From an uncultured Candidatus Saccharibacteria bacterium (GTDB lineage Bacteria > Patescibacteriota > Minisyncoccia > Minisyncoccales > RBG-13-42-11): DNA of 64,000 bases. How positions within the stretch are numbered: position 1 is the stretch's first letter; each line of letters starts with the position of its first letter. The notes beneath the pieces are model-generated. The model had not been told where the DNA came from. It was given only the letters and a program-made list of their open reading frames with translations, and did not search any database. This document shows positions 5,772-27,005 of this stretch, piece after piece. The position numbers and the translations under genes are program-made. The stretch is taken from positions 4,727 to 68,726 of the forward strand of contig CAYZSL010000003.1 of the NCBI GenBank assembly GCA_964481125.1. The letters run 5' to 3'.

Positions 5772-5779
5772 ATAAGTTT

Positions 5780-7670: not shown

Positions 7671-7901
7671 GGGTAGGACAACCCTAGGAAACTTGACAGA
7701 TTTTCTTGATGTGTTATTTTGAATTAGACACATTTACACCGCCACGAAAGATTATAGGAGGTAATTTTTCAAAACTAGTATCCTAATTTTTAAAGGAAAT
7801 TAGAATGGTGGTTTTTTTATCGTTTTAATCAGTCGATTCGTTTATAATTAATTTAACGTTAAATGGTCGTTTTTCGGCATTTAACAAAATACAAAACATA
7901 T

Positions 7902-11741: not shown

Positions 11742-11954
11742 AAATCAGGAATAGGAATAGGAAAACAATCAACCTTAGTAGTAGTCCGCCTTCGGCGGAC
11801 ACTACGGGGCAGAAATTTAGGCCTCGTTTACCCTTTGACAGGCTCGGGGCCCCGAGAGACTCGGTTGAAATCTAAGATCAATAAGTGTTGCTTAATTAAG
11901 TTAAGCTTAACCGAGTTAAGTAAAAATAATCAAAATTCAGCTCGAAATAAAATT

Positions 11955-12947
11955 ATGGTAAAGCAGAAATTTAATAAAGGTAAAATAGTAATTTATAAAA
12001 GTTCAAAAGGTCCGGAAATTCAAGTTAAGCTTGAAAAGGATACTGTTTGGCTTGATGCGCATTTAATAGCACAACTTTTTGGCGTTAATAGACCGGCAAT
12101 AGTCAAACATCTAAACAATATCTACGGAACAGGCGAGTTAGATAAAAAATCAACTTGTTCCGTTTTGGAACAGGTTGCCGCAGATAAAAAGATTAGGAAA
12201 ATGAATCTTTACAATCTGGACATGATTATTTCTGTTGGTTATCGAGTTAATTCTAAACGCGCTACTCAATTTAGGATTTGGGCGACTAAAACACTTAAAG
12301 AACATTTAGTTAGGGGCTATACCATCAATGAAAAACGGCTTTTAAGGACACAGAATCAATTAAAAGAATTGCAAGGAGCGGTTGATTTTTTACAGAAAAA
12401 AGCTAAACATGAACTTTTGGTCGGGCAAGAACAAGAAATTTTAAATCTTCTTGCCAGTTATTCTAAAACATTAACGCTCCTTGAACAGTATGATAAAGAA
12501 AAGTTGCCGCTCATTAAGAAAGCAAGAGGGAAATTCGTTTTAAAGTATAAAGATGCAAAGGGCGTGATTGATGAAGTAAAAAAAGAATTAATTGTCCAAA
12601 AAGAAACTAGTGATTTATTCGGGCAAGAAACCAGCGAAAAGTTTAAAGCGATTTTGGGAAATATTTATCAAACTTTTACCGGGAAAGAACTATATTCTTC
12701 GCTTGAAGAAAAAGCAGCGCATTTTTTATATTTTACGATAAAAGACCATCCTTTTATTGATGGTAACAAACGAATTGCCTCATTTTTATTCATCTATTTT
12801 TTGGATAGAAACAATTATCTTTATCGTTCTTCCGGCGAAAAGAAAATCAATGATAATGCTTTGACCGCTTTGACGCTTTTAATTGCGACAAGCGATCCAA
12901 AAGACAAAGATATTTTGATCAAAATTATCACCAATTTCTTGGCGTGA
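11955..12947 (+). CDS. RhuM-family N-terminal domain fused to a Doc/Fic-type domain
   Basis: ATG at 11955; the track ORF starts at a TTG at 11835. RhuM-like YNLDMIISVGYRVNSKRATQFRIWATKTL. C-terminal Doc motif HPFIDGNKRIA. Confidence 0.75.
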   Translation: MVKQKFNKGKIVIYKSSKGPEIQVKLEKDTVWLDAHLIAQLFGVNRPAIVKHLNNIYGTGELDKKSTCSVLEQVAADKKIRKMNLYNLDMIISVGYRVNSKRATQFRIWATKTLKEHLVRGYTINEKRLLRTQNQLKELQGAVDFLQKKAKHELLVGQEQEILNLLASYSKTLTLLEQYDKEKLPLIKKARGKFVLKYKDAKGVIDEVKKELIVQKETSDLFGQETSEKFKAILGNIYQTFTGKELYSSLEEKAAHFLYFTIKDHPFIDGNKRIASFLFIYFLDRNNYLYRSSGEKKINDNALTALTLLIATSDPKDKDILIKIITNFLA

Positions 12948-13158
12948 AAAAAGAGTAATAATTTTCTCTTCTCGAAAAACTATCTCTTGGGAAATAAAAT
13001 TAGAGGCGTCTAATTATGTTTATTTAGAGGATATTAAAAATAAAATAACGCGAGAATAAAAAACCGCCCCAGCTTTCGCCAGGACGTACTGTAAAACTAT
13101 TATAATTATAGCAAGCCAAAAAGAGTTATCAAGAGTTAAAAGGTTTTATCTCAATAAG

Positions 13159-13187
13159 TCGCCAAATGGGCGATTTTTTGTTAAAAT
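13159..13187 (+). promoter_or_regulatory. conserved hairpin / T-tract / -10 module, copy C (TCGCCA-N17-TAAAAT)
   Basis: TCGCCAAATGGGCGATTTTTTGTTAAAAT. The -10 ends 6 nt before ATG 13194 and there is no SD. Confidence 0.45.
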
Positions 13188-13193
13188 TGACCA

Positions 13194-14033
13194 ATGTATG
13201 TTATAAATTCAAACGGAGAAAAAGAACCTTTCTCCTTCCAAAAACTATACAGGTCTATAAGAAGGGTAGGAACGCCCCCAAAGTTAGCCATGGAAATTGC
13301 CAATGCCATTGAAAAGGAAGTTTATTCCGGCATCAGCACTTCAGACATTTTTAAAAAGGTAAAAAGACTTATTTATCCTAGGCTAAAAAGGGCTGCTTTA
13401 AGGTTTAATCTGAAAAAGGGGATGAGAAAGTTAGGGCCCAGCGGATTTCCTTTTGAAAAGTTTATCGGAGAAATATTCAAGAAAATGGGGTTTGAGGTAA
13501 AGATTAATCAACATTTACCTGGATTTTGCCTGAAAGATTACGAAATAGATTTTATAGCCAAGAAAGGTAATCTGATATACGTAGGAGAATGCAAATACAG
13601 AAATTATGCCGGGGAAAAGGTTCATTCAAAAGACGCTCTGGTAAACTATGCCCGTTTTCTGGATATTCTTAAGGGCCCTTACTTTAAAACCCAAAAATAC
13701 AAGAACTTCAAAGTAAAAAGCGTTTTAGTTACTAATGAAAAATTCACCACCAGCTCTTTAGTTTATTCCAAGTGCAACAATATAGGCCTTTTAGGATGGA
13801 AATACCCGAAAAATAGGGGACTGGAATATCTGATAGAGGAATATGCTCTTTATCCTATTACCATCCTTCCTTCTTTAAGGGGGCCTTTAAGGGAAATTTT
13901 CGTTTCAGAGAAAATGATGCTTGTTCAGGATGTAGTTAAAATTAATCCTAAAAAATTCTCAAAGATATTCAGAGTTCCTCCAAAACTTATTTTCTCTTTG
14001 ACAGAAGAAGCTAAATCCTTATTAAAGATATAA
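13194..14033 (+). CDS. ATP-cone domain fused to a PD-(D/E)xK (Mrr-type) restriction endonuclease domain
   Basis: 279 aa. N-terminal ATP-cone pattern VINSNGEKEPFSFQKLYRSIRRVG. Nuclease core FEKFIGEIFKKMGF .. EIDFIAKKGNLIYVGECKY (D..ExK). Confidence 0.7.
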   Translation: MYVINSNGEKEPFSFQKLYRSIRRVGTPPKLAMEIANAIEKEVYSGISTSDIFKKVKRLIYPRLKRAALRFNLKKGMRKLGPSGFPFEKFIGEIFKKMGFEVKINQHLPGFCLKDYEIDFIAKKGNLIYVGECKYRNYAGEKVHSKDALVNYARFLDILKGPYFKTQKYKNFKVKSVLVTNEKFTTSSLVYSKCNNIGLLGWKYPKNRGLEYLIEEYALYPITILPSLRGPLREIFVSEKMMLVQDVVKINPKKFSKIFRVPPKLIFSLTEEAKSLLKI

Positions 14034-14639: not shown

Positions 14640-15218
14640 ATGAATACTAATCAAAAAATCAAAGAACTAGAAAAGAAAATAGAAATACTCGAAAAAGAAA
14701 ATTCTAAATTGAAGAAGCTGGAAGGAAATTTAAAAAGCTCGGAAGAAAGGTTTAAGATAATTTTTGAGGAAGCGCCTGACGGCTATTTTTTAAGCAAATT
14801 AAACGGCGTCTTTATCGATGGCAACAAAGCAGCGGAAAAACTGAGCGGCTATAGAAAAGATGAACTACTAGGCAAAAGCATGCTCAAATTGAATTTAGTA
14901 TCTTTAGACCAGATGCCAAAGATTGCCAAACGTTTAGCTGAACATGCCCTAGGGAAAAGGACGGAATACGACGAATTTATATTAAATAAAAAAGACGGAA
15001 GCAAAATTATTGTAGAAATAAGCGGAACAATGGTAAAGCTTGAAGGACAAAGATTGGTTCTGGGTATTGTCCGCGACATTACCGAAAGAAAAAAAACAGA
15101 AGAAGAACTTAAAGAAAAGAACGAAGATTTGGAAAAGTTCAATAAGTTTGCCGTGGGCAGGGAACTGAAGATTATTGAATTGAAGAATAAGATAAAGGAA
15201 CTGGAAAAACAAACTTAA
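14640..15218 (+). CDS. PAS-domain protein with coiled-coil flanks and no recognisable output domain
   Basis: 192 aa. PAS core (SEERFKIIFEEAPDGYF..DITERK) followed by the tail NEDLEKFNKFAVGRELKIIELKNKI. Confidence 0.7.
   Translation: MNTNQKIKELEKKIEILEKENSKLKKLEGNLKSSEERFKIIFEEAPDGYFLSKLNGVFIDGNKAAEKLSGYRKDELLGKSMLKLNLVSLDQMPKIAKRLAEHALGKRTEYDEFILNKKDGSKIIVEISGTMVKLEGQRLVLGIVRDITERKKTEEELKEKNEDLEKFNKFAVGRELKIIELKNKIKELEKQT
15097..15209. repeat. 3' gene-module repeat, copy 1 (shared by the two PAS genes)
   Basis: About 113 nt, nearly identical to 15660-15772. It includes a 56-nt perfect match, 15111-15166 = 15674-15729. Confidence 0.85.
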
Positions 15219-15271
15219 AATGCTGCTTAAGGCAGCTTTTCAAAAAGCTAATTTTTGATATAATCTGATGT

Positions 15272-15790
15272 ATGGAGAAAGAACAGAAAAAAGACAACTC
15301 TAAGGAAACATTAGAAGCTATCTTTGACAGCGTCAGGGATGGTTTAGTCATGTTAGATAAGACAGGGAAAATCACCAAAATAAGCGAAAGCCTTATTGAA
15401 ATAGGGGGCTATCCGAAAGAAGAGCTTATTGGCAAACGTTTGAAATTTATGACCATGTTCACCCCTAAAAGCTTGGCTCAAATGATGATGAATTTCATTA
15501 GAACAATAGCTGATAACGAAATAATGCCTTATGAAGTTGAAGGCATGACAAAAGACGGCAAAAAATTATTTGCTGAAATTTCTGGCTCTCCCTTGAAAGT
15601 ACAAGGAAAAATTATTGGCGTAGTGGCAGTTTTCAGAGATATCACCGAAAAGAAAACAACAGAAGAAGAATTGAAAGAAAAGAACGAAGATTTGGAAAAG
15701 TTCAATAAGTTTGCCGTGGGCAGGGAACTAAAGATTATTGAATTGAAAAATAAGATAAAGGAATTGGAAAAGAAATTGGAAAGGAAATAA
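15272..15790 (+). CDS. PAS-domain protein, paralog of 14640-15218
   Basis: 172 aa. PAS core and the same C-terminal tail. TGaTATAAT (15256-15264) ends 7 nt before the ATG. Confidence 0.7.
   Translation: MEKEQKKDNSKETLEAIFDSVRDGLVMLDKTGKITKISESLIEIGGYPKEELIGKRLKFMTMFTPKSLAQMMMNFIRTIADNEIMPYEVEGMTKDGKKLFAEISGSPLKVQGKIIGVVAVFRDITEKKTTEEELKEKNEDLEKFNKFAVGRELKIIELKNKIKELEKKLERK
15660..15772. repeat. 3' gene-module repeat, copy 2
   Basis: See copy 1. Confidence 0.85.
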
Positions 15791-15794
15791 GGCT

Positions 15795-16169
15795 ATGACC
15801 ATGGAAGAGTTTGAAAAGCTGGTAGACGAAGGAATAAAAGCAATTCCCGAGCATTTTTTAAAAATGCTGGAAAACGTCGATATTATTGTCGAGGAAACGC
15901 CTACAACAGAACAATTGGAAAAGTTAAAGATAAGAAAGGGCGTTTTTCTTTTCGGCTTGTATGAAGGCATTCCCCAGACCAAAAGGTGGAGTTACAGCCA
16001 GGCTTTACCCGACAAAATCACTATTTTTAAAGATCCGATTGAAAAAGTGGGCAGTTCTGACGAAAAAATTAAAAAGATTGTCACAGATACTGTCTGGCAC
16101 GAATTGGCCCACCATTTCGGCATGGACGAAGGAAGCGTAAGAAAGGCTGAAAAACGAAAAAGAATATGA
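15795..16169 (+). CDS. zincin-like metallopeptidase family protein (DUF1025/Zincin_1-like)
   Basis: 124 aa. HELAHHFG metal-binding motif near the C-terminus. Confidence 0.65.
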   Translation: MTMEEFEKLVDEGIKAIPEHFLKMLENVDIIVEETPTTEQLEKLKIRKGVFLFGLYEGIPQTKRWSYSQALPDKITIFKDPIEKVGSSDEKIKKIVTDTVWHELAHHFGMDEGSVRKAEKRKRI

Positions 16170-17305
16170 AAAAAATAACCTTAGCCATTTTATTCTCTAT
16201 AATTGTCTTTATGCCGGTTCTGCCTGTTTTCGGACAAACAGAGAACAAACCGACGCTTTATTTTTTTGGCAGCCCAACCTGCCCTCATTGTATTGCTGAA
16301 AAGGCGTTTTTGGATGGATTAGAGCTAAAATGCACCAATATTGAAATAATCAGATATGACTTTGCTGAAAACCTTGAATTAGTAAAGGAATTATACCAAA
16401 AGTACAATGTTTCCGACCAGGAACAGGGTTTCGTGCCGCTTACTTTTATCGGAGACAGATATTTTATCGGATTCAATGAAAAAATCGGCCAAAACATTGA
16501 AAATTACATTATGGAACTGACCGAAGGAAAAGATATACCGGGACAATGTCCGGCAACAACTTCGGCAAATATAATAGAAATCCCTATTTTGGGAAAAATT
16601 GATATTGGCAACTTTTCTCTACCTGCTCTGGCTGTTATTTTAGGCACTCTTGACGGGTTTAACGTCTGCTCTTTGGGGGCTTTGGTTCTGATTTTAGGAT
16701 TAACCCTTGCTTTAAAATCAAAAAGGAAGATATTGATTTTTGGAGGAATATATATCTTAACTACGATAATTATCTACGGTCTTTTGATTTTCTTATGGAA
16801 TCGGCTTTTCGTTTTTGTCGCTCCCCATATAAAACAAATGGAGATACTGATAGGCCTTCTGGCTTTTGCTGGAGCTGTTTATTTCTTGAAAGAATTCTTT
16901 AAAACGCGCAAAAAGGGAGCTACCTGCCAGTTTGGAGGCATTTCCGATAAGTTTTCCAGAAAGATCCAGGGAATATTCGAAAGCAAAACAAGTATCTTAG
17001 CTTTGGCTGGAGCAGTCCTGCTGTTCAGCGCCATCGTTACTATTGTTGAATTTCCTTGCTCTGCTGTTTTTCCAGCCGTATTTTCAGGCATACTGGCTGA
17101 AGCTAATCTGCCCCTTTATTTGTCTTTGCTGTATATCGGAGTCTATATTCTGTTTTATATGCTGGATGAAATCGCTGTTTTCCTGATCGCTGTTTTCACG
17201 ATGAAAATCTGGATTCTTTCTCCAAGGTTTATTGTAGCGCTTAATCTTTTTGCTTCAATTCTATTATTCTTACTCGCTTTCTATTATTTCGCTGCTATAT
17301 TTTAA
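16166..17305 (+). CDS. exported thioredoxin-fold domain fused to a DsbD/CcdA-like multi-TM thiol-disulfide transporter
   Basis: 379 aa. Signal peptide, CPHC redox motif, then about 6 TM segments with membrane Cys (FNVCSLG, EFPCSAVFP). Confidence 0.5.
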   Translation: MKKITLAILFSIIVFMPVLPVFGQTENKPTLYFFGSPTCPHCIAEKAFLDGLELKCTNIEIIRYDFAENLELVKELYQKYNVSDQEQGFVPLTFIGDRYFIGFNEKIGQNIENYIMELTEGKDIPGQCPATTSANIIEIPILGKIDIGNFSLPALAVILGTLDGFNVCSLGALVLILGLTLALKSKRKILIFGGIYILTTIIIYGLLIFLWNRLFVFVAPHIKQMEILIGLLAFAGAVYFLKEFFKTRKKGATCQFGGISDKFSRKIQGIFESKTSILALAGAVLLFSAIVTIVEFPCSAVFPAVFSGILAEANLPLYLSLLYIGVYILFYMLDEIAVFLIAVFTMKIWILSPRFIVALNLFASILLFLLAFYYFAAIF

Positions 17306-17321
17306 AAAAGAAAGAGGGGTC

Positions 17322-17380
17322 TTGACAAGGTTCTATTATGGGTATATATTCATAATAGAGAACGCCTGGTCGAGTTCTCT
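17322..17380 (+). promoter_or_regulatory. promoter TTGACA-17-TATATT with 8-bp IR CTATTATG/CATAATAG bracketing the -10, plus a leader hairpin
   Basis: TTGACA 17322-17327, TATATT 17345-17350. IR arms at 17333-17340 and 17351-17358. AGAGAAC-N10-GTTCTCT at 17357-17380. Confidence 0.55.
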
Positions 17381-17406
17381 GATACAATCAACTATTATTT
17401 AAAAAT

Positions 17407-17679
17407 ATGCCAAGATTTGACGGAACAGGTCCTGGAGGTTACGGTCCCGGCACAGGCCGGGGAATTGGTCCTTGTGGCGCCGGAACGGGCTTTAGAAGGG
17501 GATCCGGTCGCGGATTAGGAAGAGGTTTCGGACGAAGAGGTTTCTGGGGTTATCAGCCGTATCAGCCTCAAATTACAAAAACAGAAGAAAAAGAAATATT
17601 AGCAGAAGATATGGCAGATTTGAAAGAAGAACTTAAAGCCATTGAAGCTCGTTTAGCCAAACTTAAAGGAAAAAAATAA
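17407..17679 (+). CDS. DUF5320-family protein (Gly-rich N-terminus, coiled-coil C-terminus)
   Basis: 90 aa. MPRFDGTGPGGYGPGTGRG start is typical of DUF5320. Confidence 0.6.
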   Translation: MPRFDGTGPGGYGPGTGRGIGPCGAGTGFRRGSGRGLGRGFGRRGFWGYQPYQPQITKTEEKEILAEDMADLKEELKAIEARLAKLKGKK

Positions 17680-17697
17680 AATTAAATAAAGAATAAA

Positions 17698-18036
17698 ATG
17701 AAAACAGCAATAAGTTCAACCGGAAAAAAACTCACAGATAATGTCAGCGAGGTATTTGCCAGATGCCCTTATTTTATTATTGCAGAAATTGAAAACGGAA
17801 AAATTCAAAAAGTTGAAACGATAGAAAATAAAATCGCAAGCCAGTTGGGCCAGGCGGGAATTGCAGCCGCGCAATTAATAGCAGAAAAAGACGCTAAGGT
17901 CGTAATTACAAAGAATGTCGGACCGAGAGCTCTTGATGTTTTGAATCAATTTAAGGTGGATATTTATATCGGGGACGGCACGATAGAAAAAGTTTTGCAA
18001 GAATTTATTGACGGAAAACTCAAAAAAATGAATTAA
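17698..18036 (+). CDS. NifB/NifX-family (dinitrogenase FeMo-cofactor-binding-like) protein
   Basis: 112 aa. VSEVFARCPYFII and GPRALDVL patterns. Confidence 0.7.
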   Translation: MKTAISSTGKKLTDNVSEVFARCPYFIIAEIENGKIQKVETIENKIASQLGQAGIAAAQLIAEKDAKVVITKNVGPRALDVLNQFKVDIYIGDGTIEKVLQEFIDGKLKKMN

Positions 18037-18037
18037 G

Positions 18038-18199
18038 ATGAAAATTAATTATCTTATTCCGATAGTTACAATTCTTGGATTGATTATATTATTCTTTTTT
18101 CCTGAACCAGAAACTAATTTTTTCGCATACGCCGGAACAGCATTATTTTTTGTGATAGTGATTATTTTTTTAATAATTAGATCTAGGAGAAAAAAATGA
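18038..18199 (+). CDS. small two-TM membrane protein (53 aa; below the ORF-track length cutoff)
   Basis: The ATG at 18038 lies 1 nt after the upstream stop. MKINYLIPIVTILGLIILFFF..ALFFVIVIIFLIIRSRRKK. Its TGA overlaps the next ATG (ATGA at 18196). Confidence 0.4.
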   Translation: MKINYLIPIVTILGLIILFFFPEPETNFFAYAGTALFFVIVIIFLIIRSRRKK

Positions 18200-18555
18200 A
18201 AATAGTAATTCCGACCAATAACAAGAAAGGGCTAGAAGATACGGTAGCCGAGCATTTCGGCCGCTGTTTGACATATACTTTCCTTAATGAAAAAGGCGAA
18301 GTTGTTGAAATTATAGACAACCCCAGCGAACACATGGGCGGTGCGGGTTTACCGCCGGAGTTAATGAAAAAACACGGGGCAGATATTCTATTATGCGGAG
18401 ATCTTGGACCGAGGGCCCTAGCCTTATGCGGTCAGTTGGGAATTGATGTTTATGTTAGCCAAGCGGAGACGGTAAAAGAGATTTTTGATATGTGGAAAAA
18501 TAATAAACTTAAAAAAGCAAGCACGGAAGATGTTTGCGAAGAGCATAAGATATGA
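18196..18555 (+). CDS. NifB/NifX-family protein, second copy
   Basis: 119 aa. VAEHFGRCLTYTF and GPRALALC. SD AGGAGA upstream. Confidence 0.7.
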   Translation: MKIVIPTNNKKGLEDTVAEHFGRCLTYTFLNEKGEVVEIIDNPSEHMGGAGLPPELMKKHGADILLCGDLGPRALALCGQLGIDVYVSQAETVKEIFDMWKNNKLKKASTEDVCEEHKI

Positions 18556-19745
18556 ATCAAAATTGGATTAAAGAAATTCAAGACAGAACTAAAGGGATTC
18601 CGATTAGTAGCGGTCGGTCTAATAAAACTGGCAAAATTAGCTTTGATGATTTAGTTTTTGTTCCAGCCCAATTAGCCAAAAAGCCAGTAGATTATTTTAC
18701 AGAAAAGATTAACTCAAAAACAATTATTGGAAAAAACAGTAAAAAACCGATTGAACTTAATACTCCGATAATAATTGGAGCCATGAGTTTTGGCGCTTTG
18801 TCCAAGGAAGCTAAAATCGCTTTAGCTAAAGCATCTACTATGACAGGCACTATGGAAAATACCGGTGAAGGAGGAATGTTGCCAGAAGAAAGAGAATTTT
18901 CAGAAAAACTCATTATTCAATATTCTACCGGCAGATTCGGAATTACGGAAGAAATTCTTAAAAAAGCAGATGCCATTGAAATTAAAATCGGTCAGGGAGC
19001 AAAACCAGGGCAAGGCGGATTGCTTTCAGGAGAAAAAGTAACAGAGGAAGTCGCTACAGTAAGAAAAATTGAAAAAGGTAAAGATATTCATTCTCCAGCT
19101 TATCACTCAGACATTAAAAACGTTGAAGATTTAAAGAAAAAAATTGATTGGTTGAGAGAAATTACCGGGGGAGTACCCATTATTTTAAAATTAGGAGCAG
19201 GAGACATAGAGGCAGATGTTAAAATCGCAGTAGAAGCTAATCCGGATATTATCGCTATTGATAGTTTAGAAGGAGGAACCGGCGCTGCTCCGGAAGTAAT
19301 GTTAGATGAAGTAGGCATTCCTATTTTAGCAGCCTTAGCAAAAGCCAGAGAAGTTTTAGATAAATTAGGAGCTAAACAGGAATTATGGATAGGGGGAGGC
19401 TTAAATAAGGGCGGAGATTTTGCTAAAGCTTTAGCCCTAGGAGCAGACGCAGTTTTTGTTGCTTTCCCATTATTAATTGCTATGGGTTGTGTTTATTGCC
19501 AGCAATGCTATTTAGGAAAATGTCCAAAGGGAATTGCCACTCAGAATCCGGAATTAAGAAAAAATTTAGATGTTGGAAAGACTTCCCAGAATATCGCCAG
19601 TTTCATTAAAAATTGTACCGAAGAAATAAAAATGGTGGCTGGAGCTTGCGGCGAAGCTGATATTCATAATTTAGATAAGGGTCATTTAAGGGCCTTAAAC
19701 TCAGAGATAGCTCAAATAATTAAAATTAAATTAATTTCGGAATAG
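18552..19745 (+). CDS. FMN-binding glutamate synthase family protein (stand-alone GltB FMN domain)
   Basis: 397 aa. GEGGMLPEE, IKIGQGAKPGQGGLL, EGGTGAAP and Cys cluster CVYCQQCYLGKCPKG. Confidence 0.75.
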   Translation: MNQNWIKEIQDRTKGIPISSGRSNKTGKISFDDLVFVPAQLAKKPVDYFTEKINSKTIIGKNSKKPIELNTPIIIGAMSFGALSKEAKIALAKASTMTGTMENTGEGGMLPEEREFSEKLIIQYSTGRFGITEEILKKADAIEIKIGQGAKPGQGGLLSGEKVTEEVATVRKIEKGKDIHSPAYHSDIKNVEDLKKKIDWLREITGGVPIILKLGAGDIEADVKIAVEANPDIIAIDSLEGGTGAAPEVMLDEVGIPILAALAKAREVLDKLGAKQELWIGGGLNKGGDFAKALALGADAVFVAFPLLIAMGCVYCQQCYLGKCPKGIATQNPELRKNLDVGKTSQNIASFIKNCTEEIKMVAGACGEADIHNLDKGHLRALNSEIAQIIKIKLISE

Positions 19746-19746
19746 T

Positions 19747-19923
19747 ATGGCTTATAAAATAAATAAAGAAAAATGTGTTGGCTGTGGAGCCTGTATGACT
19801 AATTGTCCTGAAGCAATTAAGCTTGGGATAGACGGAAAAGCAGAAATAATAGATCAAGAGAAATTAGCAAAATGTGAAGGAGAAAATGTCTGTCCAATGG
19901 AAGCAATAGAAAAAAACTTCTAA
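19747..19923 (+). CDS. small 4Fe-4S ferredoxin (58 aa; below the ORF-track cutoff)
   Basis: MAYKINKEKCVGCGACMTNCPEAI...CEGENVCPMEAI. The ATG lies 1 nt after the upstream stop. Confidence 0.7.
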   Translation: MAYKINKEKCVGCGACMTNCPEAIKLGIDGKAEIIDQEKLAKCEGENVCPMEAIEKNF

Positions 19924-19936
19924 AGACTAGATAAAT

Positions 19937-20251
19937 ATGATTACTTTGACTGACGAAAATTTTGAAAAGGAAATTGCAAATGCCTCGAAACCGATTTTAG
20001 TTGATTTTTGGGCGCAGTGGTGTTCACCTTGTTTAGTACTCGGACCAATTTTAGAAAAAGTAACTCAAGAGTACGAAGATAAATTGACTTTTGCTAAAGT
20101 TGATTTAGATACCGTTTCTCAAATTCCCCAAAAATACGGGATTGAGCAAATTCCAACTGTAATTTTATTTAAAGAAGGAAAACCGATTAGTAAATTTATC
20201 GGGGTAAAACCAGAAGCTATTATAAAAAATTGGCTAGAGCAAAACTTATAA
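19937..20251 (+). CDS. trxA: thioredoxin with a variant WCSPC active site
   Basis: 104 aa. VDFWAQWCSPC and the typical Trx fold pattern. Confidence 0.85.
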   Translation: MITLTDENFEKEIANASKPILVDFWAQWCSPCLVLGPILEKVTQEYEDKLTFAKVDLDTVSQIPQKYGIEQIPTVILFKEGKPISKFIGVKPEAIIKNWLEQNL

Positions 20252-20256
20252 TAAAT

Positions 20257-20529
20257 ATGGATGATAAGAAAATAGAAAATTTAATAGATAATTATGAAAA
20301 ATATGCTGAGGCTAATGGATTTAAATTAAACCCGGATAAAAAAGCAGTGGAAAGGTTGGTTAATGGTTTATTGGAAAATGAGAAAAAATACAGCGCCAAA
20401 TATTGTCCTTGTCGGAGAGTTACCGGGGACAAAGAAGAAGATAAGTCTAAAATTTGTCCCTGCCAATGGCATCGGGAAGAAATCGAAAAAGACGGCCATT
20501 GTTTTTGCCGTTTATTCATTAAGGCTTAA
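20257..20529 (+). CDS. ferredoxin:thioredoxin reductase catalytic-subunit-like protein
   Basis: ATG at 20257; the track ORF starts at a TTG at 20230. CPC..(16)..CPC..(8)..HCFC Cys pattern of the FTR catalytic subunit. Confidence 0.7.
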   Translation: MDDKKIENLIDNYEKYAEANGFKLNPDKKAVERLVNGLLENEKKYSAKYCPCRRVTGDKEEDKSKICPCQWHREEIEKDGHCFCRLFIKA

Positions 20530-20544
20530 TAAAAAGTTAAGAAT

Positions 20545-21417
20545 ATGAAAATTGCAATAACAGGGGGAAAAGGCGGGGTGGGAAAATCAATGGTGGCGAC
20601 TTCTCTGGCGATTGAATTCGCAAGACGAAATAAAACAATGTTAGTGGATGCAGATGCCGAATGCCCAAATGACCACCTTTTACTTTCCGTAAAAAGAAAA
20701 AAATATATTACTGTTTATCAACCGATTCCAAAATGGGATTTTAAGAAATGCACAAAATGCGGCAAATGCGCTTCTGTTTGCAAACAAAACGCTATTGTTT
20801 TCACCAAGGGCAAATATCCTGCTTTTGTCAAAGATGTTTGTATCGGTTGCAAGGCCTGTATTGTTGCCTGTCCGACTGGCGCAATAACGGAAACTAAAAA
20901 AGAAATCGGCACAATTTATACTGGAAAGAATTATAATGTTAATTTGGTTTCAGGCGAGCTTAAATTGGGAGAACTCGCTTCCGGCGAAGTAGTAGCTGAA
21001 GTAAGAAAATATTCCGATAAGATTAATAAAAAGATGAAAGCCGAAGTAATTGTTATTGATTCCTCGCCGGGAATCGGCTGCCCCGTCATTGCTTCTTTGG
21101 TCGGCACCGATTATATCGTCGGGGTAACCGAGCCGACACCGTCCGCCCTTTTTGATTTAAAAAGGGTTTTATACCTTGCCGATCATTTCAAGATTAAACA
21201 TGGAATTGTTATTAATAAATTCGGTCTCTCAAAAGATTTTTATAAAGAGATAGAAAAATTTGCCAAAAAAAATAATATTCCAATTTTGGGAAAAATCCCT
21301 TACAGAAAAGATTTTGTTGAATCAACGATAAAAATGAAGCCCGTGGTTAAAATAAATCCAAAATATAGAAAATTGTTCAAAGAAATTATCAACGGAATAA
21401 GCGCAAGACTAAAATGA
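20545..21417 (+). CDS. MinD/ParA-type P-loop ATPase with an inserted 2x[4Fe-4S] ferredoxin domain
   Basis: 290 aa. Walker A GGKGGVGKS. CTKCGKCASVC and CIGCKACIVACP. Confidence 0.75.
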   Translation: MKIAITGGKGGVGKSMVATSLAIEFARRNKTMLVDADAECPNDHLLLSVKRKKYITVYQPIPKWDFKKCTKCGKCASVCKQNAIVFTKGKYPAFVKDVCIGCKACIVACPTGAITETKKEIGTIYTGKNYNVNLVSGELKLGELASGEVVAEVRKYSDKINKKMKAEVIVIDSSPGIGCPVIASLVGTDYIVGVTEPTPSALFDLKRVLYLADHFKIKHGIVINKFGLSKDFYKEIEKFAKKNNIPILGKIPYRKDFVESTIKMKPVVKINPKYRKLFKEIINGISARLK

Positions 21418-22463
21418 AAGAAAAAGTTGCTATTATCTCAATACTGACGAATGCGATTTTAGCGGGAGGAAAAATCGCTGTCGGTGTGTTTTCGAGTTCG
21501 GCCGCTATTTTAGCAGAGGGAGTTCATTCTTTTATGGATATTTTCTCCTCGGCCGTTGGTTATATTGGAATCAAAATATCTAAAAAACCAGAAGACCAAA
21601 AACATCCCTATGGCCATTATAAATTTGAGGTTTTAAGCGGCACAATTATTACTATAATTCTTCTGGCAACAGGCTTGGGAATTATTTACGAAGCCTATCA
21701 AAGTTTTCTTGGCCCTGAAAAAATTAAAGTCAGCTATTTAGCTTTCGGAATAATGATATTTTCAGCAGCTGTCAACGAAATAATGGCCAGAGTAAAAATT
21801 CATTATGGCAAAAAAGAGAACTCCATCAGCTTGCTTTCAGACGGATTCCATTCAAGGATTGATGTTTATGCTTCGCTGGCTGTTTTAGCTGGTTTATTTC
21901 TGACAAAATATTGGATTTATACTGATTCCTTGTTAGCTTTTTTGATCGGCGCTTATATCATTAAAAAATCTTTTTCTTTGGGAAAAGAAGCAATTGATTC
22001 TTTGCTTGATGTTTCAGCTGGTGAAGAAATTGAGGAAAAGATAAAAACAATCGCTAAAACACAGAATATTGAAATTTCCTCTTTAAAGACCCAAAAAAAA
22101 GGTTCGGCTGTTACTGCCAATTTGGAAATAAAACTGCCAAGCAATTTAAAAGTAGAAGAAGCAACTAAAATTTCCGACAACTTAAGAGAAAAACTTATAA
22201 AAGCAATAGAAAGTCTTCAGTACGTCGCCATTCAAATCACAAGCCACGAAGTAGAAACGGGATTCTATAAACCAGAATTCGGCAGGAGTTTTGGTTGGCA
22301 AAGAAAAGGCAAATTTAGAGGAAAGATTGAAGAGGCGAAAGGAGAAGGGCCGGGCGGCTATTGTGCCTGCTCGAAATGCGGTTATAAAACCCTTCACGAA
22401 CGCGGCGTCCCTTGTTCGACGCTTGAATGTCCAAAATGTAAAATTAATTTAGTTAGAAAATAA
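21414..22463 (+). CDS. cation diffusion facilitator transporter with a C-terminal Gly-rich + zinc-ribbon extension
   Basis: 349 aa. CDF HxxxD motifs (HSFMD, HSRID). Tail GEGPGGYCACSKCGYKTLHERGVPCSTLECPKCK. Confidence 0.8.
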   Translation: MKEKVAIISILTNAILAGGKIAVGVFSSSAAILAEGVHSFMDIFSSAVGYIGIKISKKPEDQKHPYGHYKFEVLSGTIITIILLATGLGIIYEAYQSFLGPEKIKVSYLAFGIMIFSAAVNEIMARVKIHYGKKENSISLLSDGFHSRIDVYASLAVLAGLFLTKYWIYTDSLLAFLIGAYIIKKSFSLGKEAIDSLLDVSAGEEIEEKIKTIAKTQNIEISSLKTQKKGSAVTANLEIKLPSNLKVEEATKISDNLREKLIKAIESLQYVAIQITSHEVETGFYKPEFGRSFGWQRKGKFRGKIEEAKGEGPGGYCACSKCGYKTLHERGVPCSTLECPKCKINLVRK

Positions 22464-22464
22464 T

Positions 22465-22746
22465 ATGACAAGACCAATAAAACCGAGAAGAGTGTTATTT
22501 AACCCAAATGTGGTCTATTTTAAACCGAGAGCGGTGCCTTTATCTATGCTGGATGAGGTTGATTTGAACATAGACGAACTGGAGGCATTGCGGCTTTGCG
22601 ATTTTAAAAACCTAGACCAAGCTGAAGCGGCAAAAAAAATGAAAATTTCTCAAAGCACTCTTCAACGGACTTTAACATCAGCCCGCCAAAAAATAGCTGA
22701 AGCCCTAATTGAGGGCAAGGCGATAAAGATAATAAAAGAAAAATAA
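22465..22746 (+). CDS. DUF134 (UPF0251) family putative DNA-binding regulator
   Basis: 93 aa. RPIKPRRV..FKPRAVPL start and an HTH (MKISQSTLQRTLTSARQKIAEAL). Confidence 0.7.
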   Translation: MTRPIKPRRVLFNPNVVYFKPRAVPLSMLDEVDLNIDELEALRLCDFKNLDQAEAAKKMKISQSTLQRTLTSARQKIAEALIEGKAIKIIKEK

Positions 22747-22774
22747 AGAAGAGAAAATACTAGAAATGATCAAA

Positions 22775-22808
22775 TAAAAAACGAGGCTCCTAATTAAGTC
22801 TCGTTTTT
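22775..22808. terminator. bidirectional terminator candidate between convergent genes
   Basis: A-run, ACGAG..CTCGT stem, T-run. Confidence 0.5.
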
Positions 22809-22812
22809 AATT

Positions 22813-23376
22813 TTATTCCACCCTTCTAACGTATTCTGCTTTTTCCGTATTGATCTCAACAATATCGCCGGTTTCAACGAAAAGGGGAGCGTTAATTTCA
22901 GCTTCTGTTTCCAATTTTATTATCTTTGTCCCTCCCTGGGCCCTGTCTCCTCTGATTCCCGGCGGAGCTTCAACAACTTTCAATTGGACTTTTATCGGCA
23001 GGGAAATATTGATTATTTTTCCCTTAAATTCCAATCCTTCGACAATCTCGTTCGGTTTTAAAAAAACAGCGCTCTCTCCAACAGCTTCCTCAACCAAGTC
23101 AAAACGCTTGGAAGGGTTTTTTTCGTGGCAGAAGAAAAACTTGCTCTGCTTGTGGTAAACGAATTTCACTTTGATTTTTTCAATTTCCGCTTCTTCAAGT
23201 TCTTCTCCGGCGTGGAAAGTTTTTGAAACTACACTACCGGTAATCAGATTTTTTATCTTTGTCTGGACAACCGAACCTCCTCTGCCTTTAAAAACTAAAG
23301 AAGAATCCAGCACTTCATAGGGCTGGTTGTTTAAAATGAAATCTATCCCTTTTTTTAAATCGTTATGTGAGAGCAT
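22813..23376 (-). CDS. efp: elongation factor P
   Basis: 187 aa with full-length EF-P pattern. The tip loop reads KGRGGS, with Arg where E. coli has Lys34. Confidence 0.9.
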   Translation of the reverse strand: MLSHNDLKKGIDFILNNQPYEVLDSSLVFKGRGGSVVQTKIKNLITGSVVSKTFHAGEELEEAEIEKIKVKFVYHKQSKFFFCHEKNPSKRFDLVEEAVGESAVFLKPNEIVEGLEFKGKIINISLPIKVQLKVVEAPPGIRGDRAQGGTKIIKLETEAEINAPLFVETGDIVEINTEKAEYVRRVE

Positions 23377-24340: not shown

Positions 24341-24792
24341 TTAACAATGCGCCACTCTATTTCTTCTTCTTTCCCGGCAAATTCCAGCCAGTCGTTCTCA
24401 GGAGAAATGACATACCATTTTTTCTTGGATTCTGACCAAACCATATGATTTCCCTGGAAATACGGCTTTTTGACTATTTCTTTCGGCTTCAATTTATCCA
24501 ATTCCAGCCATTTTTTAAAAACCGTTTCAATGGCATAATCCAAACCTCTGGACCTTGCCCATTCAGCTACTTTATTGATGGCGTTCTTTGCTTTTCTGGC
24601 AGAACCTGCCAGCTCTAAAAGCTGTTTTGCCGGCCTGGTAAATCTAGAATAGATTATCTTTTTCTTTTTGGCGTCTTTTTTAATCTGTTCCAGATTTAAG
24701 CCTTTGCTGTAGAAATAACAATTGACTATTTCCTGGATTTTTGTTTCTTCTCTTTGTTTCTTTAATTTCTTTTTTTCTTTGTCTATTTTCAT
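24337..24792 (-). CDS. hypothetical basic protein
   Basis: 151-aa ORF overlapping both neighbours by 4 nt, so likely translationally coupled. Confidence 0.45.
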   Translation of the reverse strand: MKIDKEKKKLKKQREETKIQEIVNCYFYSKGLNLEQIKKDAKKKKIIYSRFTRPAKQLLELAGSARKAKNAINKVAEWARSRGLDYAIETVFKKWLELDKLKPKEIVKKPYFQGNHMVWSESKKKWYVISPENDWLEFAGKEEEIEWRIVK

Positions 24793-25349
24793 TGGTATTT
24801 TTCTGCTGTAAAGCGATAAATGAATACTTTTTCCTTTTTGGGGTTGATGCCTGCTTTTTGGCAGGCAATGGAAAACTGCTCCTCTGATATGTTGATTCCT
24901 TCCAAATCAGGCAGTAAAAGCCCTGTTTTGGAGGAAATATTAGCGTCAAACACCGGATCTTCATTAGGAAAGGCAAAAGGCGCTGTCTTTACAATTATAC
25001 CAAATTTTTTAGGATTCAGCTCGTTAATATTCTCGATTAATTCCGGTTCGCTTAAAATATATACAGTATAGGAAAGATAGGGAAGTTCTTCTTTTTTGAT
25101 AGGTTCAAACCGGTAGTCTTCGGTAGCTGCGGCAATGGCGTTATTGATGATTTCTTCAACTATGTTTATTTTTGTTGGCAGATAAGTGCCGATGCAGCCT
25201 CTTAGTTTTTTATCCTGTTCAATAGTAACAAAAACGCCTGCTCTTTTCTCGAAAAATTCTTTGGGCAGGTTTGTTGGAGGTTCAATGATTTTCCTTTCTG
25301 TCAGATATGTTTCTACAGTTTGTTTGGCGAGTGAAATGTATTGATTCAT
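24789..25349 (-). CDS. amrA: AMMECR1 domain protein (AmmeMemoRadiSam system protein A-like)
   Basis: 186 aa. LRGCIGT motif. Confidence 0.8.
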   Translation of the reverse strand: MNQYISLAKQTVETYLTERKIIEPPTNLPKEFFEKRAGVFVTIEQDKKLRGCIGTYLPTKINIVEEIINNAIAAATEDYRFEPIKKEELPYLSYTVYILSEPELIENINELNPKKFGIIVKTAPFAFPNEDPVFDANISSKTGLLLPDLEGINISEEQFSIACQKAGINPKKEKVFIYRFTAEKYQ

Positions 25350-25963
25350 TTTAATTTGAAGTTTACTACTAAATATCCAACGCCGAAAGGGAATTCATAT
25401 GATAAGATTTCAGGAATCCAATTGGTTTTTGATTCTTCCAGCATGCCCAATAAAAAACAAATGGATCTCAACCCGCATTCTCCGGCTTCAGGGTATTTAT
25501 CGTCCAGTTTTAAAATATTTTCAATATCTTTCTTTTTTAAAGATTCTATCAGTTCTTTATCGAATTTCTCGCCTTGAGGATTTAATCCGTAAGGACCGTC
25601 TTCTTTTAAGCAATGGGAAAGATCTCCTGAGGCAATTAAAGCGTATTTCTTGCCTTCTGCCAAATTCTTATATATCCTTTTTCCTTCGTTAAAATAGAAT
25701 TCCGAGGATTCTGAACCGGTTAAAACCCTGTCAATCTTTCCTTGAAAGTTATTAGCCAGGAAATACAAAGGAACTTCAAAACCCCAATCAGGATGAGGAG
25801 AAGAAATGACAATCTGTTGGGGATTCGCTTTTGTAAATTCCTTTGATAAAACGTAAAGGCTTTCAATTGTTGTTTTAACTTTCTCTCTGTCTTCTTTTGA
25901 ACCAACTGAAGGTAGGATTATCGGCGGGTGAGGGGAGATGAAAGCTGAAACTATATTTGACAT
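25346..25963 (-). CDS. class III extradiol dioxygenase (LigB/Memo superfamily) protein in the AmrB position
   Basis: 205 aa. N-terminal AFISPHPPIILP is LigB-like. Located between the AMMECR1 and radical SAM genes. Confidence 0.55.
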   Translation of the reverse strand: MSNIVSAFISPHPPIILPSVGSKEDREKVKTTIESLYVLSKEFTKANPQQIVISSPHPDWGFEVPLYFLANNFQGKIDRVLTGSESSEFYFNEGKRIYKNLAEGKKYALIASGDLSHCLKEDGPYGLNPQGEKFDKELIESLKKKDIENILKLDDKYPEAGECGLRSICFLLGMLEESKTNWIPEILSYEFPFGVGYLVVNFKLK

Positions 25964-25988
25964 TTTGTTTTGGAAGTATTAAGTTTTC

Positions 25989-27005
25989 CTATTTTAAAAT
26001 CAAGTTCAAATTCTTCCCGCATTTCTGGCATTTGCCTTTTTCATCGTGGCGGGAAATGCTGTATCCTGTCCTGTCGATTGCCAAAGTGCCGCATTTGGGG
26101 CAGAAAGTGTCTTCTGTCGGCAATCCTGGAACATTACCGGTATATACGTATCTTAGCCCGGCTTTTTTACCTATATCATAGGCCATTTTTAAAGTACTGA
26201 TCGGGGTTTCCAACGAACCTTGCAATTGCCATGACATGCTGCCGGAAAACTGGCTGATATGCCAGGGAGTTTCTTTGCCCAGTTCTTCCTTAATAAATCT
26301 GGCTATATTTTCAAACATTTCCTTTGAATCACTCAGTCTTGGAATGGCTAGGGTAGTGATTTCAACCCAAATATCCTTATCTTTTAATCTTTTTAAAGTA
26401 TCTAAGACCGGCTGGAGTTTGGCTCCGCAGTTTTTAATATAGAATTCATTGGAAAAGCTTTTCAAGTCAACATTGGCCGCATCAAGATATGGCGATACCC
26501 AGTCAAAAAGTTCTCTTGACCAAAAGCCGTTGGTCACCCAGACGTTCTTTATTCCTTTCTTTTTGGCCAGTTTCATAATATCTATGGCATATTCTGAAAA
26601 AATGGCTGGTTCAGTATAGGTGTAAGAAATGCTGGGCACTTTATTTTTTAAAGCGATATCGATAATTTTTTCTGGCTGTACGTAATCTCCCGGTATTTCT
26701 TTTGTTTCTTTAACTTCCTGGGAAATATCCCAATTCTGACAGTTCAAACATCTCAAGTTGCAGCCTACTGTGGCAATAGATAAAGAACGAGTGCCTGGCA
26801 GAAAATGGAAAAATGGCTTTTTTTCTATCGGATCAATATTGCAGGCAACAAGTTTTGCGTAGTTTAAAGCACATAACTTACCGTTGATATTTTCTCTGAC
26901 TCCGCAAATGCCTCTTTTGCCCGGTTCAATAAGACAATAATGGGCGCAATTCTGGCATTGCGTTTTTTGATCAGCGGTTGTTTGATATAAATAAGCTTCT
27001 TTCAT
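25989..27005 (-). CDS. amrS: AmmeMemoRadiSam system radical SAM enzyme
   Basis: 338 aa. CNLRCLNCQNW radical SAM cluster motif, plus N- and C-terminal Cys pairs. Confidence 0.85.
   Translation of the reverse strand: MKEAYLYQTTADQKTQCQNCAHYCLIEPGKRGICGVRENINGKLCALNYAKLVACNIDPIEKKPFFHFLPGTRSLSIATVGCNLRCLNCQNWDISQEVKETKEIPGDYVQPEKIIDIALKNKVPSISYTYTEPAIFSEYAIDIMKLAKKKGIKNVWVTNGFWSRELFDWVSPYLDAANVDLKSFSNEFYIKNCGAKLQPVLDTLKRLKDKDIWVEITTLAIPRLSDSKEMFENIARFIKEELGKETPWHISQFSGSMSWQLQGSLETPISTLKMAYDIGKKAGLRYVYTGNVPGLPTEDTFCPKCGTLAIDRTGYSISRHDEKGKCQKCGKNLNLILK

Follow-up and report, generated by a model that had tools for sequence, protein, structure and literature searches.

A possible ORP-like iron-sulfur or transition-metal handling operon with a predicted palindromic operator in an ultra-small groundwater bacterium

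A 64-kb window of DNA (64,000 nucleotides of contig CAYZSL010000003.1, from an uncultured Candidatus Saccharibacteria bacterium) contains a same-strand island of twelve open reading frames (ORFs) at 16166-22746 (+ strand), eleven of which are predicted to form one operon. The operon was read, tentatively and at a little short of even confidence, as a system for handling iron-sulfur (Fe-S) clusters or transition metals which resembles the ORP complex of Desulfovibrio and has its own regulator, and to which a ferredoxin-driven thiol-reducing module would have been added in this lineage. The host is an ultra-small groundwater bacterium, and the context is that of a bacterium of the Candidate Phyla Radiation (CPR), with efp and fmt flanking the operon. 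The reading draws on gene order in related loci, on a predicted operator common to bacterial and archaeal loci, and on a cysteine-rich module that recurs on several of the proteins.

All twelve ORFs of the original prediction were found in place, and what had been described as twelve packed genes was resolved into an operon of eleven ORFs and a neighboring gene (gene 1). Inside 17407-22746, intergenic gaps range from -4 to +18 nt. A sigma70-like promoter (17322..17350, +; -35 TTGACA at 17322-17327, 17-nt spacer, -10 TATATT at 17345-17350) was the top + strand match of this type in the region scanned, with 11/12 positions in agreement, and a hairpin terminator (approximately 22772..22813; 12-bp stem and T-run, dG -14.6 kcal/mol, z -3.0) lies between the DUF134 gene and the convergent efp gene. 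Promoter-like and terminator-like matches internal to the operon did not exceed shuffle expectation. As a prediction, a single operon at 17322-22813 with eleven genes (17407-22746) is strongly supported. Gene 1 (16166..17305, +) is separated from the DUF5320 gene by 101 nt, with the promoter inside this spacing; because it lies upstream of the promoter, gene 1 was placed outside the operon, and its earlier assignment to the unit was not upheld. At its 5' end it overlaps a zincin gene by 4 nt. On profile search, 10 of the proposed family calls were above the hidden Markov model (HMM) thresholds; of the remaining two ORFs, gene 1 is DsbD-like only via an indirect profile match, and a 53-aa peptide was unsupported. 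A 7-bp inverted repeat with a 10-nt loop (AGAGAAC...GTTCTCT, 17357-17380, +) was also observed in the predicted 5' untranslated region, between the operator and the DUF5320 start.

Conservation was assessed in 80 loci anchored on the MinD/ParA-type ATPase with inserted ferredoxin domains (MinD-ferredoxin), with one genome per species, 68-90% identity, and annotation with the window's proteins. A full-flank subset of 33 loci had at least 4 kb on both sides. Related loci are referred to by L-numbers, and proteins of a representative library by P-numbers. In the full-flank subset, NifX-like genes were present in 32 loci, DUF134 in 27, a CDF metal exporter in 22 and DUF5320 in 20; the gene-1 family was found in 7, thioredoxin in 7, ferredoxin in 4, the ferredoxin-thioredoxin reductase (FTR) catalytic subunit in 2, and a GltB-type protein in 1. 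From these neighborhoods the recurrent same-strand core is read as DUF5320, NifX, NifX, MinD-ferredoxin, CDF and DUF134. That the DUF134, NifX, MinD-ferredoxin and DUF5320 genes recur together, as originally proposed, was borne out by the counts (NifX 32/33, DUF134 27/33, DUF5320 20/33), and since the CDF exporter is present in 22/33 full-flank loci it is considered core and not an add-on. The combination of gene order and operator goes far beyond chance, because L082 repeats the gene order of the window exactly (minus the 53-aa ORF) and the operator is unique in the window.

The cassette interior generally, and the junction between the second NifX-like gene (NifX2) and MinD-ferredoxin, take varied cargo. 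Among 74 inserted ORFs were metal ABC transporters (ABC_tran 8, ABC-3 5), radical SAM (5), ferritin-like EncFtn (4), MBL (4), UDG (4), methyltransferases (4), ZIP (3) and the Fe-S domain PF04060 (3), and the NifX2/MinD-ferredoxin junction also takes peptide deformylase. Cassette flanks often carry FeoB, a Fur-family gene with ZnuABC, ZIP, or a cobW/FeS GTPase. Small ferritin-like proteins of EncFtn/EncB type (approximately 64 bits, below cut-off) were observed between DUF5320 and the first NifX-like gene (NifX1) in several bacterial cassettes, those of L017 (1883-2164), L064 (8216-8497), L057 and L065, and no encapsulin shell gene was evident near these inserts. A scan of viral contigs found no relative, so a phage vehicle is without support.

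The operator is a 20-bp palindrome, TTATGGGTATATATTCATAA (TTATG-N10-CATAA), at 17336..17355, where it overlaps the -10 box. It occurs as a single copy in the window, compared with 0.10 matches expected, and the strict pattern was found in 21/50 non-redundant upstream regions vs. 0.6% of background windows. A scan of 1.72 Mb of related loci, in which up to 2 mismatches were allowed, gave 52 sites: 40 directly upstream of DUF5320, 6 upstream of NifX1 in loci that lack DUF5320, one upstream of a leading CDF gene, and one upstream of a gene-1 homologue. In 46/52 cases the site thus stood at the 5' end of the cassette, upstream of its first gene, and with the operator predicted to overlap the 17322 promoter, the proposal of a single operon from that promoter held.

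Cassette loci came from metagenome-assembled genomes (MAGs) labeled Patescibacteria (CPR) and from MAGs labeled DPANN archaea. The archaeal context is real by its flanks, with ribosomal protein S6e and eIF2-gamma in L055 and aIF5A in L072. The bacterial context is real as well, with EF-P and Fmt beside the window operon and with L068 from the fully sequenced bacterium Minisyncoccus archaeiphilus PMX.108, where the cassette is at around 193-198 kb of NZ_AP038758. The gene order is DUF5320, NifX, NifX, MinD-ferredoxin, CDF, DUF134 in bacteria and DUF5320, DUF134, (CDF), NifX, NifX, MinD-ferredoxin in archaea. A TTGACA-like box 6-12 nt upstream of the operator was found in 26/30 bacterial-order loci vs. 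0/12 archaeal-order loci, and a TATA-like box (TTTAWAWA) ending no more than 8 nt upstream of the operator in 8/12 archaeal-order vs. 1/30 bacterial-order loci. By these motif counts the predicted operator is common to the bacterial and archaeal loci, and the core promoter differs. Median MinD-ferredoxin identity was 74% between bacteria, 74% between archaea and 73% across domains. In a Neighbor Joining tree of MinD-ferredoxin (built without support values and from sequences of which several have doubtful MAG labels), bacterial and archaeal sequences were intermixed, and the nearest neighbor had the same label for 64/78. A cross-domain identity so far above that expected from vertical inheritance implies inter-domain transfer, extreme constraint, or both. 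No description of the cassette in CPR bacteria or DPANN archaea was found in the literature searched.

In either setting a protein bound at the operator would block initiation, and a repressor is therefore suggested by the geometry of the site. The candidate is the DUF134 helix-turn-helix protein (22465..22746, +; PF02001, 95.4 bits), which also matches Sigma70_r4_2 (27.2 bits, cut-off 25.7) and is the sole DNA-binding protein of the cassette. DUF134 was present in 32/34 operator-bearing loci, and we infer that it acts at the operator. A Fur-family protein was considered as the binder and judged unlikely, such genes being found in just 2/160 loci. The literature search on DUF134 and DUF5320 returned no functional account of either.

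DUF5320 (17407..17679, +; PF17253, 78 bits) comprises an N-region followed by a charged helical C-terminus. The N-region (residues 1-56) is cationic and rich in Gly, Arg and aromatic residues (20 Gly, 8 Arg, 8 aromatic, 1 Cys, isoelectric point 11.55). NifX1 (17698..18036, +; 112 aa, 73.9 bits) and NifX2 (18196..18555, +; 119 aa, 57.2 bits) are both Nitro_FeMo-Co proteins; H20 of the HFG motif is invariant in NifX2, and this protein matched PH0822, TM1290, TM1816, MTH1175 and the ORP structure 2wfb (E 5.7e-5 for the last). MinD-ferredoxin (20545..21417, +) has a CbiA/ParA domain with a deviant Walker A motif (GGKGGVGKS) and two inserted Fer4 domains, a 2x[4Fe-4S] insert. Its eight ferredoxin cysteines are conserved at 99%, C40 and C179 are also invariant, and CooC and Mrp/HypB-related proteins were among its matches. 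The CDF exporter (21414..22463, +; TIGR01297, 220 bits vs. a cut-off of 82) has a ZT_dimer domain, site A residues H38/D42/H146/D150 (D42, H146 and D150 conserved) and loop residues D61/H64/H68/E72. The nearest named families were MamB/MamM, MntE and FieF, all below cut-off, and the site A residues, which would be compatible with Fe or Zn, do not settle the metal.

The C-terminal 69-aa tail of the CDF exporter (22254..22460, +) is a separate module, in which a Gly/Arg-rich linker (FGWQRKGKF or FGWQRKGRF) is followed by a six-Cys, one-His ribbon of the pattern GPGGxCxCxxCG-x4-H-x5-C-x4-CPxC. The zinc-ribbon tail noted in the original prediction proved real and conserved, with seven residues (C317, C319, C322, H328, C334, C339 and C342) each found in 98% or more of 49 homologues; matches to zinc-ribbon HMMs were weak. 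The ribbon is carried by CDF in bacterial cassettes, by the C-terminus of DUF134 in archaeal-order cassettes, and by both in L055, and in P0126, which heads an archaeal-type cassette, the DUF5320 N-region is joined directly to it. An exhaustive HMMER search recovered the ribbon in 631 representative clusters, most of them stand-alone proteins 45-110 aa long. Several ribbons occur with a NifX-like domain and rhodanese or PDZ domains in large proteins; P0133 (988 aa) and P0139 (600 aa) were observed to have 3-4 ribbons and a NifX-like domain, together with PDZ domains in the former and rhodanese in the latter. Across genomes, the ribbon is therefore fused to four core families (CDF, DUF134, DUF5320-type and NifX-like), which counts as Rosetta-stone-type evidence for a joint function, and the link to rhodanese indicates sulfur chemistry.

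Between NifX2 and MinD-ferredoxin, the window operon carries four redox genes. The stand-alone GltB-type FMN/Fe-S domain (18552..19745, +; PF01645, 382 bits) has the motif C-x2-C-x2-C-x4-CP, in which the cluster cysteines of GltS are retained and a fourth is added. No GltB amidotransferase or GXGXG domain was found in the operon (PF01645 only; NF008730 188 bits vs. a cut-off of 1047). It is followed by a 58-aa [4Fe-4S] ferredoxin (19747..19923, +; Fer4 by profile match), a thioredoxin with the active site WCSPC (19937..20251, +; TIGR01068 119.8 bits vs. a cut-off of 96.8) and the FTR catalytic subunit (FeThRed_B, 20257..20529, +; PF02943 83.9 bits vs. a cut-off of 22), with the six-Cys motif YCPC...ICPC...HCFC. 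For FTR, the ATG at 20257 was taken as the start (alternative TTG at 20230), as the MDDKK start is supported by alignment to fused relatives. No island ORF matched FeThRed_A, the FTR variable subunit, in the profile search; FTR-like proteins of non-photosynthetic organisms usually lack this subunit. All four genes are regarded as accessory.

To compare neighborhoods, 80 metagenome loci anchored on close FTR homologues were used. Core cassette genes were present in 38/80 of these loci, and in 20/35 of those with at least 2 kb of flank; thioredoxin was present in 78, ferredoxin adjoined FTR in 50, and GltB, the customary companion of ferredoxin and FTR in this clade, was found in 29. About a dozen FTR loci other than L082 have the order NifX2, [GltB], ferredoxin, thioredoxin, FTR, MinD-ferredoxin. 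In the cassette-bearing species genomes, FTR was found in 3/80 and GltB in 2/80, and L003, with a MinD-ferredoxin 87% identical, is without the redox block, NifX2 being followed directly by MinD-ferredoxin. From these distributions, the GltB-ferredoxin-thioredoxin-FTR block is interpreted as an accessory insertion, rare among cassettes yet often located inside one. Other reductases occupy comparable positions: a TrxR-like flavoenzyme stands beside thioredoxin in the archaeal cassette L050, and a CoA-disulfide-reductase-like enzyme in bacterial L038 sits at the exact junction which holds the redox block in the window. The recruitment of three non-orthologous disulfide reductases suggests that the core benefits from thiol-reducing input, with none of the three obligatory, and a functional tie between redox genes and cassette is supported by these arrangements. 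The original prediction had an electron-input module and a metal transporter merged with the core; the redox link stands (38/80 FTR loci and the reductase slot), and the two parts differ in status, since the CDF exporter is core (22/33) and the redox block is an add-on. Outside the cassette, in L114 and L120, the redox block is followed by an Rrf2 regulator, SufC, a SufB/D-like scaffold, MnmA and a gene-1 homologue, and in L013 the cassette is followed by ferredoxin, SufC, SufBD and MnmA.

A fused thioredoxin-FTR protein occurs in 53 relatives; in 25 others, which include those nearest to the window, the two genes are separate. The fusions are approximately 200 aa (L092, L097, L114, L153 and 49 others) and have non-canonical thioredoxin sites (WCMPC, WCFPC and WCSPC). 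A sequencing frameshift of a fused gene was considered as the source of the thioredoxin/FTR frame overlap and was rejected, as 25 relatives, the closest among them, share the split.

The product of gene 1 combines a signal/anchor with a thioredoxin fold that is exported (CPHC) and with a membrane domain of six helices. It belongs to a family of 885 members, mostly from Patescibacteria and named 'thioredoxin family protein' at source, in which the CPxC motif, C168, C254 and C298 are invariant; a member of gene 1's 90%-identity cluster is from Candidatus Nealsonbacteria RBG_13_38_11. An AF2 model (pLDDT 71) has a thioredoxin fold (TMt ~0.6) followed by a helical membrane domain, for which no Pfam or NCBIfam model gave a match. 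When gene 1 was aligned by hhalign with an archaeal neighbor protein of L024, the probability was 77% (E 2e-5, 211 columns) and both Cys motifs aligned; the L024 protein itself scored 36.7 bits to SfLAP (cut-off 35) and 24.0 bits to DsbD_2 (cut-off 24.9). A thiol relay like those of the DsbD/CcdA superfamily is a plausible assignment for gene 1 on this profile evidence. The gene-1 family adjoins the cassette in 22/80 loci; among its homologues (TrxTM), thioredoxin is directly upstream in, for example, L012, L017 and L041, and the FTR block in L091 and L093. In the archaeal locus L048, an operator copy with 2 mismatches (5766-5785) was observed upstream of a gene-1 homologue, at 27 nt from its ORF, and this copy suggests that the DsbD-like protein can share the regulon even when outside the operon.

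The 53-aa hydrophobic ORF (18038..18199, +) occupies a 160-nt spacer between the two NifX genes. These genes abut in 64/72 pairs, and the spacer of the window is absent elsewhere. The peptide had been listed as a membrane protein of the island; as a conserved gene it was rejected, because no homologue was found in 160 related loci and independent gene callers left it uncalled on contigs with an identical copy of gene 1.

An Fe-S or metal theme is supported by the invariant cysteines of MinD-ferredoxin and the ribbon, and by FeoB, Fur-family, ZnuABC-type ABC-3, ZIP, EncFtn, cobW/FeS GTPase and radical SAM genes in or near cassettes. In the mechanism proposed, the NifX-like pair and a MinD-ferredoxin dimer would form an ORP-type complex that binds labile metal-sulfur species and passes them on in an ATP-dependent manner, with C40 and C179 of MinD-ferredoxin possibly forming a site between subunits like that of NifH or Nbp35. 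The cationic region of DUF5320 may supply in trans what the tail of IssA, a thioferrate-storage protein of Pyrococcus furiosus, does in cis, namely the electrostatic binding of anionic Fe-S species, and CDF would export surplus Fe(II) or Zn(II). DUF134 would repress from the -10 box in bacteria and from just downstream of the TATA box in archaea, and the six-Cys ribbon could be a sensing element (for metal, Fe-S or redox state) or a docking element. Electrons passing from ferredoxin to FTR to thioredoxin would keep Cys ligands reduced and be available for cluster mobilization or assembly, and the DsbD-like gene 1 is probably a further recipient of this chain. The ferredoxin would be shared with the GltB-like flavoprotein, which could be a second consumer of its reduced form or a ferredoxin reductase. 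For delivery across the membrane, which had also been suggested, nothing in the analysis spoke.

Several points weigh against this ORP-like metal-handling reading. NifX2 has one invariant His only and is without Cys ligands, and the model does not explain what the GltB-like protein does. The pairing of DUF134 with the operator is guilt by association, and the 2x2 table does not discriminate because DUF134 is nearly always present. Gene 1 is outside the predicted transcription unit, and the redox module, being absent from most cassettes (FTR 3/80), is not essential to core function. The ORP literature favors a role in cell division. The locus sets were selected by similarity to the window's own proteins and are biased to close relatives, and MAG taxonomic labels are partly unreliable (e.g., 'Gammaproteobacteria', 'Campylobacterales'). 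The H/D/H/D site of CDF, together with ZnuABC, ZIP and cobW neighbors, suits zinc equally with iron. In an explanation that was judged unlikely overall, the locus would serve zinc or divalent-metal homeostasis coupled to thiol-redox stress: the ribbon would be a zinc-thiolate redox switch like those of zinc-binding anti-sigma factors, DUF134 would derepress on thiol oxidation or a rise in zinc, CDF would export zinc, the thioredoxin system and the DsbD-like protein would restore thiols, and NifX and MinD-ferredoxin would be metallochaperones. The CDF site and ZT_dimer domain, the ZnuA/ABC-3, ZIP, cobW-type GTPase and Fur-family genes in or beside cassettes, the six Cys and one His of a ribbon with weak zinc-ribbon HMM matches, the thioredoxin systems as recurrent cargo, and the resemblance of DUF134 to sigma70 region 4 all fit it. 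However, an Fe-S ATPase is the protein with the highest conservation, the only known role of NifX-like domains is the binding of Fe-S or metal-sulfur clusters (PMC5524996, PMC6345978), and the SUF adjacency, ferritin-like cargo, FeoB and the rhodanese-NifX-ribbon fusion point to iron and sulfur.

Quite unlikely is a cell-division or positioning module of the kind proposed for ORP, whose redox clusters would couple septum placement to redox state while the transporter and redox genes are neighbors of convenience. MinD/ParA family membership, the morphology of orp regulator mutants and the polar localization of MrpORP speak for it (PMC8359166, PMC6345978), but no division genes recur in the 160 neighborhoods, where metal transporter, ferritin-like, SUF and thiol-reductase genes do; ribbon fusions tie CDF, DUF134, DUF5320 and NifX-like proteins together; and the division role of ORP is itself a hypothesis, 'still unclear' (PMC8359166). 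The NifX-like and NifH/CooC-like proteins might instead be dedicated to maturation of one metalloenzyme, inserting a complex cofactor into a target such as the GltB-like protein, FTR or an enzyme encoded at another locus. Cofactors are carried by proteins of the NifX/NafY family, MinD/CooC/HypB-type ATPases are classical maturation factors (and CooC and Mrp/HypB-related matches were seen), and radical SAM genes are inserted in five cassettes; this possibility was nevertheless rated very unlikely, with no target enzyme co-conserved with the core (GltB and FTR in at most 3/80 cassettes) and with a core exporter and autoregulator that suit homeostasis better. Chance juxtaposition of an ORP-like cluster, a thioredoxin system and a transporter, with no common function, would account for the redox block missing in close relatives such as L003 and for the unrelated cargo (UDG, peptide deformylase, methyltransferases) at the NifX2/MinD-ferredoxin junction. 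It was considered highly improbable and is largely refuted by the one operator-promoter, the one terminator and the gaps of -4 to +18 nt, by the positive reciprocal FTR neighborhood test, and by non-orthologous reductases in the same slot and fusions across core families.

A bolder form of the ORP-like metal-handling reading, which was considered doubtful, is that the cassette is a hitherto undescribed Fe-S (thioferrate-like) buffering and export system common to ultra-small bacteria and archaea. The NifX pair and DUF5320 would then be a 'split IssA' which a redox-active MinD ATPase loads and unloads, CDF would dispose of surplus metal, DUF134 would found a repressor family, and the ribbon would be an Fe-S or thiol sensor. 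If so, the operator was kept through a change of the core promoter from the bacterial -35/-10 form to the archaeal TATA form, or in the opposite direction, and a ribbon that archaea can place on the regulator and bacteria on the transporter implies cross-talk between the two.

ORP-type gene sets (a MinD-ferredoxin ATPase with a NifX-like protein) have been known since 2011, and their function is not agreed. New here are the operator, the shared ribbon module, the cross-domain spread with domain-specific promoters, and the interchangeable reductase slot. Testable handles are given by the operator, the candidate regulator DUF134, the core metal exporter, the mobile Cys ribbon and the recurrent disulfide-reducing input. 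An identity of approximately 73% across domains for MinD-ferredoxin, despite the minimal genomes of CPR bacteria and those of DPANN archaea, would mean unusually strong constraint or repeated inter-domain exchange, and a shared operator in domain-specific promoters would be a rare natural experiment in regulatory evolution. The cultured carrier Minisyncoccus archaeiphilus makes experiments feasible.

Other features of the window were recorded. Two tandem PAS-domain paralogues (14640-15790, +; 192 and 172 aa), without a kinase or output domain, lie upstream of the zincin gene and gene 1 on the same strand and may be co-transcribed with them; a 142-nt direct repeat in them (15067-15208 and 15630-15771, 91% identity) encodes the same C-terminal coiled-coil. 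At 24789-27005 (-), AMMECR1, Memo/LigB-like and radical SAM genes are adjacent (Pfam calls from the annotation of an identical contig), a trio which we take to resemble the conserved 'AmmeMemoRadiSam' set. At 7863-11547 (+), a 758-aa protein without a Pfam match overlaps a 500-aa protein with a thrombospondin type-1 (TSP1) repeat, a feature seldom met in bacteria, and the two may act at the surface of an episymbiont or in its adhesion. A RhuM/Fic-domain protein and, after it, a fusion of an ATP-cone with an Mrr-like restriction-endonuclease domain (11835-14033, +), a short way upstream of the island, may represent defense or toxin-type genes.

The operon was compared with known systems part by part. 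With the FTR system of plastids and cyanobacteria, and with FTR-like proteins from anaerobes, it shares PF02943, the six-Cys CPC...CPC...CxC arrangement and the adjacent ferredoxin and thioredoxin; it differs in the absence of the variable subunit, in CFC for CHC, in the thioredoxin site WCSPC, and in being set in a metal/Fe-S operon with a GltB-type flavoprotein. Gene 1 resembles DsbD/CcdA/ScsB in its exported thioredoxin-fold CxxC domain, perhaps in its polytopic membrane domain with two invariant membrane cysteines (C168 and C298), and in the cytoplasmic thioredoxin gene directly upstream in several genomes; a cytoplasmic thioredoxin feeding a DsbD-type relay is established biology. It differs in that its membrane domain is without a family-model match, in its largely patescibacterial distribution, and in a third invariant Cys in a loop (C254). 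Minimal SUF systems (SufBC/SmsCB-like, with Rrf2/IscR-type regulators) are comparable to the extent that the ferredoxin-thioredoxin-FTR-GltB module adjoins SufC, SufB/D-like, MnmA and Rrf2 genes in L114 and L120 and that both systems stand side by side in L013; in contrast, the window operon is without Suf genes, and cassette proteins are non-homologous to SufB, SufC and SufD.

IssA shares the NifX-type IPR003731 domain, and its low-complexity tail (15 Gly, 7 cationic, 14 aromatic, 1 Cys, isoelectric point 10.7; PMC5524996) is chemically similar to the DUF5320 N-region. Here, however, NifX1 and NifX2 (112 and 119 aa) are tailless, and the tail-like stretch belongs to another protein, one that ends in a coiled coil. 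The IssA tail was proposed to bind anionic thioferrate, and IssA-mediated cluster reconstitution required dithiothreitol in vitro (PMC5524996).

The closest known system is the ORP complex of Desulfovibrio, in which Orp3, Orp4 and Orp8 co-purify and receive Fe-S clusters (PMC6345978). The ORP genes also include Orp5, a small Cys-rich [2Fe-2S] protein. Its role is described as 'still unclear', with cell division as a hypothesis (PMC8359166); orp regulator mutants have morphological defects, and MrpORP is found at the cell pole (PMC8359166, PMC6345978). An expression hint comes from D. alaskensis, where feoA and flavodoxin co-vary with the ORP genes (PMC10533852). Both systems have a MinD-family ATPase with inserted 2x[4Fe-4S] (Orp3/Orp4 type, compared by architecture) and adjacent single-domain Nitro_FeMo-Co proteins, as Orp8, with NifX2 matching ORP 2wfb, and both are confined to anaerobes (PMC6345978, PMC8359166). 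One ATPase is present here vs. the Orp3/Orp4 pair, and the operon has no Mrp/NBP35-NifX fusion (Orp9/MrpORP; NF041136 35-58 bits vs. a cut-off of 450), although these sub-threshold MrpORP scores were counted among the links to ORP. ORP consists of two divergent sigma54 operons under OrpR, whereas here a single co-directional operon has a sigma70-like promoter, a palindromic operator and DUF134, and no enhancer-binding protein was found to be encoded in the island by profile search. The CDF exporter, DUF5320 and the Cys ribbon belong to the core here, and the hosts are CPR bacteria and DPANN archaea. The island had been put forward as an undescribed system; its core is conserved and largely uncharacterized, but the pairing of MinD-ferredoxin ATPases with a NifX-like protein is known from the ORP complex (PMC6345978). 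Because the MinD-ferredoxin ATPase and a NifX-like subunit are present and the MrpORP fusion and sigma54/OrpR control are absent, the locus is regarded as an ORP-like variant rather than a member of that system (PMC6345978, PMC3897727, PMC8359166).

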